Of a stretch of 64,000 bases of DNA, positions 31,390 to 31,531 are shown one piece after another (the stretch's first letter is position 1; each line of letters starts with the position of its first letter). The notes under the pieces are model-generated. The model was given only the letters and a program-made list of their open reading frames with translations, did no database searches and was not told the DNA's origin. The position numbers were made by a program, and so were the translations under genes. Where the stretch lies: the IMG/VR virus record IMGVR_UViG_3300034170_000024, positions 2,117-66,116 of that record; one strand, 5' to 3'. This DNA is from a virus (taxonomy: Duplodnaviria; Heunggongvirae; Uroviricota; Caudoviricetes).

Positions 31390-31418
31390 TTGACCACGGT
31401 GACCAACCTCTGTATAAT
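31390..31418 (+). promoter_or_regulatory. consensus sigma70 promoter TTGACC-17-TATAAT driving tRNA-like gene
   Basis: near-perfect -35, perfect -10, 17-bp spacer; predicted start about 5 nt before tRNA-like 5' end. Confidence 0.65.
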
Positions 31419-31429
31419 GGGCACCACAA

Positions 31430-31531
31430 GACGCGGTGATGGAATTGGTAAACATTGGGGAGCAAGCACTTAACGTTAGTGCCCATACCGCTGGCTTAAT
31501 TGCCTTGAGGGTTCGACTCCCTCCTGCGTCA
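31430..31531 (+). tRNA. tRNA-like gene, noncanonical length (~102 nt)
   Basis: 7-bp acceptor stem GACGCGG/CTGCGTC (one G-U), discriminator A, canonical T-arm GAGGG-TTCGACT-CCCTC; 3-bp D-stem with GG-containing 11-nt loop possible; central region forms a 5-bp hairpin GCACT-TAACGTT-AGTGC inside a longer irregular arm plus a 21-nt variable-arm-like segment; does not fit a standard cloverleaf by eye. Confidence 0.45.

Follow-up and report, generated by a model that had tools for sequence, protein, structure and literature searches.

Phage tRNA genes are usually read as codon supply or as replacements for tRNAs that are cut by host defences, and in engineered tRNA scaffolds, in the t-elements of plant mitochondria and in the tRNA-miRNA RNAs of murine gammaherpesvirus 68 (MHV68) the body of a tRNA serves as a processing and stability handle for a cargo or a neighbouring transcript. 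The gene described here belongs to a family that can serve neither as codon supply nor as tRNA replacement, since it has no anticodon. It lies in a stretch of 64,000 nucleotides (in the following called the window) which covers positions 2,117 to 66,116 of the IMG/VR record IMGVR_UViG_3300034170_000024, a virus of the Caudoviricetes, and it occupies window positions 31430-31531 on the plus strand. Our analysis shows that this element of 102 nt is a conserved, structured RNA gene derived from tRNA-Leu and devoid of an anticodon. With class II tRNA-Leu it has in common a 7-bp acceptor stem, U8, A73, the T loop UUCGAnU, a variable-arm hairpin ending in U48, and the D loop GAAUUGGUARA with A14, A15, G18G19 and A20a. 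However, the 5-bp anticodon stem, the 7-nt loop and the anticodon of class II tRNA-Leu have given way to a 4-bp stem that is followed by an internal loop and a hairpin, and the gene stands alone in a 5′-untranslated region (5′-UTR) instead of being part of a tRNA cluster.

The RNA begins with the 5′ strand of the acceptor stem, GACGCGG (31430-31436), which forms seven base pairs, one of them G.U, with CUGCGUC (CTGCGTC in the DNA, 31524-31530); the discriminator A73 is at 31531. U8, G9, the leucine-type D arm AUG-GAAUUGGUAAA-CAU (31439-31455) and a U as nucleotide 26 together fill 31437-31456. They are followed by an extended, non-decoding arm at the place of the anticodon arm (31457-31491), in which the outer stem GGGG:CCGC, containing one G.G, leads through a 5x5 internal loop (AGCAA/CCAUA) to the inner hairpin GCACU-UAACGUU-AGUGC (31466-31482), without U33 and R37. 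Nucleotide 44 (U), a short variable-arm hairpin GGC-UUAAUU-GCC of 12 nt and UU occupy 31492-31506, with U48 at 31506, and the T arm GAGGG-UUCGACU-CCCUC extends over 31507-31523. CCA is not encoded; A73 is followed by CUC. The first-pass annotation, which was made from the letters of the window, had named the 7-bp acceptor stem, the discriminator A, the T arm GAGGG-TTCGACT-CCCTC, a length of about 102 nt and a hairpin GCACT/AGTGC with a loop TAACGTT lacking U33 and R37. All of these are read in the sequence as claimed, and the covariation in relatives presented below extends to the acceptor stem and the T arm. Its 21-nt variable-like segment is present as well, but really comprises the 3′ strand of the long arm (CCAUA and CCGC) plus the 12-nt variable hairpin. 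Unconstrained folding of 31430-31531 by RNAfold gave a cloverleaf with a long interrupted third arm, with an energy z-score of only -1.4, so that thermodynamics alone is no proof of the fold.

Detection by standard tools is incomplete. ARAGORN reported neither a tRNA nor a tmRNA anywhere in the 64-kb window, the element was negative even with introns allowed, and none of its relatives was called. The Rfam tRNA model (RF00005) scored 33.0 bits on a sub-window of 321 nt (gathering threshold 29; E = 2.4e-5). The alignment covers model positions 1-71, but only acceptor, D arm and T arm are matched, and in the centre 31 + 17 nucleotides are taken as insertions; the likeness to a tRNA claimed at first sight is thus recognised by a covariance model on these three parts. 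In a run on the whole window at gathering thresholds the element was filtered out and not reported. Two relatives scored 30.2 bits (Pseudomonas phage Pyxpy01) and 26.4 bits (contig L185) against the same threshold, and no other Rfam family matched the element. Of the features described by RF00005, the element possesses the 7-bp acceptor stem with discriminator, a T loop of the GTTCRANYC type and a D arm with G18G19 and A14/R15; what it lacks is the 5-bp stem with a 7-nt loop, U33, anticodon and R37. This marks a gap in annotation: ARAGORN misses every member, and the Rfam tRNA model catches only some of them, and these only with relaxed filtering.

The search for relatives was performed along several routes. 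BLAST of the element against 50,697 GenBank phage records revealed one relative, in Pseudomonas phage Pyxpy01/02, at an unannotated locus just after the DNA polymerase gene and behind TTGACA-17-TACAAT; the publication on Pyxpy01 gives a count of 19 tRNAs without reference to this locus. Pattern scans of IMG/VR contributed two contigs (L144, 38.8 kb; L174, 103.8 kb), a metagenome scan a contig of 4.4 kb (L180), and a search of IMG/VR with the SPFH protein encoded downstream of the element, combined with a scan of the flanks by the element's own covariance model (R1), contributed L185, L203, L188, L193 and L196. This protein-based route to the last five uses no RNA sequence. Carriers number about ten, namely the window, one phage species (Pyxpy01/02) and eight metagenomic or viral contigs, and belong to a group of Pseudomonas-type phages of about 100 kb, uncultured apart from Pyxpy01/02; as large collections were scanned with exact patterns only, the family size is a lower bound. 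R1 gave 71-110 bits for eight core members, the 110 bits belonging to the single copy in the window, and 47-50 bits for the divergent L193 and L196; the next-best matches were genuine tRNA-Leu genes with 58-67 bits. No second copy was found with R1 in the window or in the 50-100 kb region of Pyxpy01. Lengths across the family range from 83 to 162 nt. Exact-pattern scans of IMG/VR with the central blocks GGGGAGCAAGCAC..GTGCCCATACC and GGAATTGGTA..GGGAGCAAGC gave no match, and a looser version gave 43 chance matches. A scan for the spacing between D loop and T loop returned many oversized genes of tRNA-Leu type, mostly with removable inserts or unrelated centres; oversized tRNA-Leu-bodied genes similar to the element occur scattered across viral metagenomes. 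The nearest named relatives by SPFH gene, Boevelstad and Ep020, have no element upstream of that gene.

An unannotated RNA of 109 nt with the same design as the window element and a different sequence was observed in Serratia phage BF (KY630187 289744-289852, identical to L048 1494-1602) and in the Erwinia phages pEa_SNUABM_12/19/44/47/49/50 (L049, L050). In these jumbo phages it starts 2 nt after a tRNA-Sup(CUA) gene. It is negative in ARAGORN and reaches 45.6 bits with R1. A T arm and A73 are present, the D arm AUGGAAUUGGUAAACAU is that of the window element, and the long arm is composed of a 6-bp stem with G.G, a 7x7 loop AACAAUA/GACGAUA and a small cap.

That the tRNA-like fold exceeds chance is decided by the homologues, which keep it through compensatory changes. 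In an alignment of ten sequences to the model, 95.3% of the cells pair, compared with 40-49% when the partners are slid. Compensatory changes were found in 19 of 25 pairs, and the observed values were reached by none of 500 shuffles. They are spread over all helices, with 7/7 pairs in the acceptor stem, 4/4 modelled pairs in the inner hairpin, 3/5 in the T stem and 2/2 in the variable arm; paired cells amount to 97% in the acceptor stem and to all cells in the T stem, and the outer-stem pair 27:43 is seen as G-C, C-G and U-A. This alignment was fitted to the model and is biased towards structure, and the sequences are phylogenetically related. An earlier test used a MAFFT alignment of four members and a hand-written structure; there, 95% of the cells pair against 37-48% after sliding by 1-3 columns, and 14/25 pairs show compensatory changes. 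On the basis of the MAFFT test and the slid controls we argue that the covariation signal is real. Minimum free energy folding delivered the same cloverleaf with a long interrupted arm for five of six RNAs (window, Pyxpy01, L144, L180 and the separate BF RNA), whereas the centre of the L174 RNA folds differently.

These data bear on the option, also raised by the first-pass annotation, of a degenerate tRNA or attachment (att) site remnant. A decaying, functionless tRNA-Leu pseudogene would agree with the missing ARAGORN call, with the missing anticodon and with the dispensability of the element in close relatives. However, compensatory change maintains 19/25 pairs across ten diverged copies, both halves of the tRNA body are present and covary, and the promoter-proximal position is kept. 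An att site would be expected as a fragment identical to a host tRNA, but among 185,579 GTDB species-representative genomes none contains an exact copy of the 25-nt 3′ part, the central pattern is absent from GTDB representatives too, and no integrase was seen among the ORFs (open reading frames) scanned. A remnant of this kind is largely refuted by the covariation and is very improbable.

The conservation is unevenly distributed along the molecule. The D-arm stretch UGAUGGAAUUGGUA(A/G)ACA (UGAUGGAAUUGGUARACA) is near-invariant in all members, with L203 and its G10 as the sole exception, and it is equally conserved in members found through the SPFH protein, i.e. independently of the RNA sequence. 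The family consensus comprises U8, G9 and the D arm (A/G)UG-GAAUUGGUA(A/G)A-CAN. The T loop UUCGAnU is found in every member, U48 in front of the T stem in the eight core members, and A73 in nine of the ten aligned relatives and in the RNA of phage BF. The tRNA body is clearly under much stronger constraint than the centre. By BLAST, both flanks of the element match annotated tRNA-Leu genes, and the best matches of the D arm are tRNA-Leu D arms. The sequence comparison thus points to a class II tRNA-Leu as the ancestor, whose anticodon arm was exchanged for a long irregular helix that has a tip free in length and sequence. Origin from the tRNA-Leu(CAA) gene of Pyxpy01 itself was considered and rejected; this gene is short and dissimilar.

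In E. coli, leucine identity depends crucially on A73 and on neither the anticodon nor the long variable arm (PMC9976931). Leucyl-tRNA synthetase (LeuRS) further needs A15:U48, G18G19, A20a and the elbow contacts G18:U55, G19:C56 and U54:A58, and tRNA-Leu variants without anticodon and variable arms are still leucylated (PMC9976931, citing Asahara 1993/1998 and Larkin 2002). Every identity element of E. coli LeuRS listed there is present in the window: A15 at 31444, U48 at 31506, G18G19 at 31447-31448, A20a at 31450, the T-loop UUCGA with U54, U55, C56 and A58 of the elbow at 31512-31516, and A73 at 31531. Across the family, the elements in D arm, T loop and A73 are kept while 7/7 acceptor pairs and both variable helices are rewritten. 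Since the body is kept as the helices drift, and this also in members found independently of the D-arm sequence, something appears to read the leucine-type body, and LeuRS would be the obvious candidate. The complete recognition set of LeuRS is here combined with strong structural selection; besides the alanyl- and seryl-tRNA synthetases (AlaRS, SerRS), LeuRS is the only synthetase of the Pseudomonas/E. coli type that ignores the anticodon.

From the sequence we propose a chargeable, non-decoding mimic of tRNA-Leu that undergoes tRNA-like maturation and acts in trans, a reading to which we give an even chance. The conserved structure, the intact leucine identity set and the missing anticodon favour this option of a tRNA mimic or decoy, which had already been put forward by the first-pass annotation. 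RNase P would cut the primary transcript 5′ of G1, the A/U-rich trailer would be trimmed, and a host enzyme would add CCA, resulting in a stable RNA of about 100 nt. The product could be charged by LeuRS, because all identity elements are present and the enzyme ignores the anticodon and variable arms, and it should be unable to decode on the ribosome, because the arm is too long and there is no anticodon. As a look-alike of tRNA-Leu acting in trans, it might engage a host factor or defence enzyme that recognises the body or 3′ end of tRNA-Leu, serving as its decoy or sink, or it might be a non-ribosomal donor of leucine, or a tRNA scaffold that shows the conserved internal loop to a protein partner. 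By analogy to tmRNA we put forward, more tentatively, that the phage makes such a mimic as a new class of effector RNA working off the ribosome. It may be a bait for a host immunity enzyme attacking the class II tRNA body or 3′ end, or a private leucine donor or LeuRS sink, and the hypervariable arm may be the side of the molecule on which an arms race takes place or which meets a protein partner.

Several observations weigh against a chargeable mimic. In L196, a distant member, nucleotide 73 is U and A2 is mismatched with A71. The D stem consists of two or three Watson-Crick pairs only, with A.G or A.A at 10:25 in six of ten sequences, and CCA is encoded in Pyxpy01 only, with CUC or CCU following A73 in the others. 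The element always lies in a 5′-UTR with no terminator ahead of the next gene, which is compatible with a role in cis. The element has no neighbouring gene common to all contexts, and a partial scan of 26 distinct window ORFs for a tRNA-related enzyme found none. Finally, the family is rare, with its about ten phage genomes or contigs.

The long arm is the most variable part of the molecule. Elsewhere in the family the outer stem has 4 bp as CUGG:CCGG, UUGG:CCGA or CUGA:UCGG. Beside it lies a roughly symmetric internal loop, which reads AGCAA/CCAUA in the window and Pyxpy01, AGGAU/UGAUA with tandem G.A in L144, L174, L180, L185 and L203, and UGA/GAC in L188; the motif was described by inspection only. 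A kink-turn or loop-E motif was considered for this loop and rejected, as its symmetric arrangement (A.A, G.U, then G.A/A.G or C.A/A.C) does not fit a kink-turn by inspection. The hairpin beyond the loop has 4-8 bp or is a larger insert, and its tip is UAACGUU in the window and a tetraloop of the sequence GAAA in Pyxpy01. In L144 the tip CAAC closes a stem of 8 bp, L174, L180, L185 and L188 have a loop of 12 nt, and L203 has an insert of about 63 nt. The occurrence of a GNRA tetraloop at the tip shows that this is not an anticodon loop. The variable arm is a hairpin of 2-3 bp, such as GC-GAAA-GC in Pyxpy01 and GUC-GAAA-GAC in L180, and is about 68 nt long in L174. Leucine-type class II bodies in which a 4-bp stem bears an unusual 7-nt loop were observed in L154 (350-440, minus strand, UUAAAAC) and L196 (2891-2973, plus strand, CUAAUAC), the latter at the site upstream of the SPFH gene of a more distant phage and with U73; in L109 (2803-2909, plus strand) the same type of body has a hairpin inserted in an odd 7-nt loop. 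These bodies could be intermediates towards the anticodon-less form.

Such an arm would be expected if the RNA were a natural tRNA scaffold, in which the body provides processing and nuclease resistance and the inserted arm is the active part, an aptamer or antisense loop binding a protein or RNA. Ponchon and Dardel reportedly designed an engineered tRNA scaffold in 2007 in which a cargo replaces the anticodon arm, and the architecture of the element would fit such a design. An internal loop of the form 5′-ARSA / 5′-SAUA adjoins the outer stem in seven of the ten aligned relatives and in the BF RNA, and the 12-nt apical loop UA(C/A)GGUGACAGU is kept over different covarying stems in L174, L180, L185 and L188. 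In L174 (7145-7306, equal to L204 2687-2848) 11 nt of this loop, AUAAGGUGACA, show complementarity to the 3′ end and trailer of the element itself (UGUCA-CCUUAU); no such complementarity was seen in the window element. However, the tip as a whole is not conserved (GAAA, CAAC, UAACGUU, long inserts), the window loop has no target complementarity beyond chance 8-9-mers, no arm insert matches any Rfam family, and the retention of a leucine-specific body and of A73 would be unexplained. We therefore regard the scaffold as rather improbable on its own, and it overlaps with the mimic proposed above. The trailer of L174, CACCUUAU, loosely resembles the 3′ end of 16S rRNA, and CCUUAU-like trailers follow the element in L174, L188, L180 and L185. 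Shine-Dalgarno mimicry or an antisense function of the tip was rejected, as it applies to the subgroup with GGUGA loops only and nothing like it exists for the window loop.

A further explanation of the enlarged centre is a decoding tRNA-Leu with a small intron that is removed after transcription. Viral contigs do contain tRNA-Leu genes with inserts of 21-88 nt (L115, L057/L125, L068/L108 and L184), the excision of which would leave a CUNNNAA loop; in L115, L057 and L184, which are unrelated to the family, the intron mode of ARAGORN does recover a standard loop. In the family of the element, by contrast, no excision recreates a 7-nt loop with U33 and R37 on a 5-bp stem, the intron mode of ARAGORN is negative for the window element and Pyxpy01, and no anticodon is common to the residues on either side of the inner hairpin (AGCAA/CCAUA, AGGAU/UGAUA). 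In addition, bacteria are not known to possess an enzyme for such short tRNA introns. A spliced, decoding tRNA is hardly credible here. The insert-bearing genes themselves, with the insert in the anticodon loop, are located at L115 5928-6039, in L057 and L125 (about 107 nt), at L068 6617-6730 and at L108 5454-5569; further ones are at L184 4777-4942 and 6670-6830. Several inserts start at position 33/34, where CU is followed by UCUAC(A/G)G, and others at 37/38; they may be small tRNA introns.

The position of the element in the genome would also suit a function in cis. A sigma70-type promoter TTGACC-17-TATAAT (31390-31418, plus strand; -35 box 31390-31395, -10 box 31413-31418) matches 11/12 consensus positions and is separated from the element by a short leader of 11 nt (31419-31429). 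From promoter geometry, transcription is predicted to start near 31425, which would leave about 5 nt for removal by RNase P. TTGACN-17-TANNAT was found 9-14 nt before the element in all five members whose upstream sequence was fully read. Downstream, the A/U-rich trailer CUCUUAUUUUAAACC and the Shine-Dalgarno sequence AAGGAG (31547-31552) of the next gene cover 31532-31558. This gene (31559-32461, plus strand) encodes an SPFH/Band 7 lipoprotein (PF01145, 9.5e-9; phrog_200 lipoprotein) and is context only; its ATG is 27 nt from A73. Upstream lies a small lipoprotein ORF (31053-31370) with the lipobox LALSGC. The near-consensus promoter, the distance of 27 nt and the neighbouring lipoprotein genes agree with what the first-pass annotation had reported. 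A terminator-like site was looked for between the element and the downstream ORF and none was found.

In all ten relatives the element is situated between the promoter and the next ribosome-binding site, with 27-28 nt to the ATG in the window, Pyxpy01 and L144. The orthologous promoter, leader, ribosome-binding site and SPFH gene occur without the element in six close relatives (L186, L187 and L189-L192), and these empty sites identify the element as an accessory insertion, present or absent, in a pre-existing 5′-UTR. It precedes the SPFH gene directly in the window, L174 and L188, lies behind a neighbouring promoter and ahead of a small ORF in L180 and L185, and follows the DNA polymerase gene in Pyxpy01 and a 343-aa ORF in L144. 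A small conserved ORF is downstream of the element in L180 (2095-2217) and upstream of it in L181 (5218-5343), so that the element occupies two different promoter-proximal sites of otherwise collinear genomes. As sites and neighbours differ among phages, it behaves as a self-contained accessory module and not as the regulator of one gene. For studies of phage tRNA-mimic function it would be a short, defined and dispensable object, for which natural pairs of phages with and without it exist.

In a cis-acting module the tRNA-like fold would serve as a signal for the processing or stability of the early mRNA at whose start it lies. Cuts by RNase P and RNase E might set the 5′ end of the mRNA, in analogy to plant mitochondrial t-elements and to tRNAs upstream of tufB, or the uncut structure might shield the 5′ end or tune translation of the next gene. 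The constant place between promoter and ribosome-binding site, the absence of a terminator before the ORF and the insertion into an existing 5′-UTR are all in line with this, and a freely varying centre would be expected if only the body recognised by RNase P matters. However, RNase P needs only an acceptor/T minihelix and a generic elbow, which leaves the near-invariant 18-nt leucine-type D arm, A73 and U48 unexplained while all helices drift. Moreover, the downstream gene varies between phages, down to the small ORF lying on either side in L180 and L181, and the similar RNA of Serratia phage BF resides within a tRNA cluster and not in a 5′-UTR. The position itself is weak evidence, since a short 5′-UTR is nearly the only place where a neutral insertion is tolerated in such compact genomes. 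The processed leader RNA suggested by the first-pass annotation is thus right in terms of position, inside the 5′-UTR of the SPFH mRNA which relatives have without the element; as a function in mRNA processing it is the main live rival of the tRNA-Leu mimic, a possible one that we do not favour.

The promoter of the element does not stand alone. Six sigma70-like promoters with at least 11/12 consensus positions and spacers of 16-17 nt were found on the plus strand (29470, 30474, 31390, 33228, 39878 and 41417), and being on the coding strand between 29.4 and 41.5 kb they make it part of a series of early-type promoters, with the element at the very 5′ end of the transcript. Weaker matches are in total no more numerous than expected from shuffled sequence. 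Each of the six is followed by a short 5′-UTR, which suggests an early region with many promoters. The 26 scanned ORFs matched functions in replication, nucleotide metabolism, tail and lipoproteins; the window encodes a primase-helicase, a DNA polymerase, ribonucleotide reductase, a lysozyme and tail proteins. Its nearest named relatives are the Pseudomonas phages Boevelstad, Ep020, vB_PpS_SYP and phiPMW, with about 73-78% identity in a few genes only. A cluster of nucleotide-pool genes (51801-54322 and 55016-57756) includes a class I ribonucleotide reductase, a MazG-like pyrophosphatase (51801-52304), a protein carrying the dATP/dGTP diphosphohydrolase N domain (52252-53007; PF18909, 2.5e-19) and a weak ThyX-like ORF (53333-54322), and may be related to a modified DNA base. 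The cultured carrier Pyxpy01 (L179) encodes an RF1-domain protein similar in size to ArfB (23039-23527, minus strand) and an RNA ligase with polynucleotide kinase (36745-38057, minus strand); together with the 19 ordinary tRNAs in a cluster, these form a toolkit for tRNA repair and translation far from the element. In another viral contig of 123 kb (L176) ARAGORN calls a tmRNA at 293-701 within a cluster of 24 tRNAs.

The element family appears to be undescribed so far; we did not find descriptions of a tRNA-like, decoy, mimic or anticodon-less phage RNA of this type in the literature searched. Among the known phage RNAs, species 1 and 2 of T4 (rnaC and rnaD) are likewise tRNA-like stable RNAs, with 119-139 nt and an unknown role. 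The T4 rnaC RNA has a T arm and an acceptor-like stem, on which R1 gives only 18 bits and thus no homology, and the T4 RNAs are located at the end of a tRNA cluster and lack a leucine-type D arm, unlike the element. YrlA (RF02553) is also a non-coding RNA, with a non-decoding module that imitates the D/T elbow and the acceptor of tRNA. However, the ends of YrlA form a stem that binds Ro/Rsr and its acceptor is closed, whereas the element has an open acceptor and is closed at the opposite arm. The RF02553 model did not match the element, and no TROVE/Rsr protein was seen among the 26 ORFs of the partial scan. The scaffolds, t-elements and MHV68 RNAs mentioned at the outset are synthetic, eukaryotic or organellar, and none combines a conserved internal loop with the full identity set of a synthetase; a literature search for a bacteriophage example of such a tRNA-body handle turned up none. 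The closest parallel in logic may be tmRNA, an RNA without anticodon that has an acceptor/T-arm body, is matured by RNase P and is charged by AlaRS, which ignores the anticodon as LeuRS would in the case of the element. In contrast to tmRNA, the element has no G3.U70 alanine identity (3:70 is C-G), no tag ORF and no pseudoknots, it has a full D arm and a helix like an anticodon arm, and the tmRNA models of ARAGORN and Rfam do not match it. If it is charged, it would be a second natural non-decoding aminoacylated RNA, after tmRNA.

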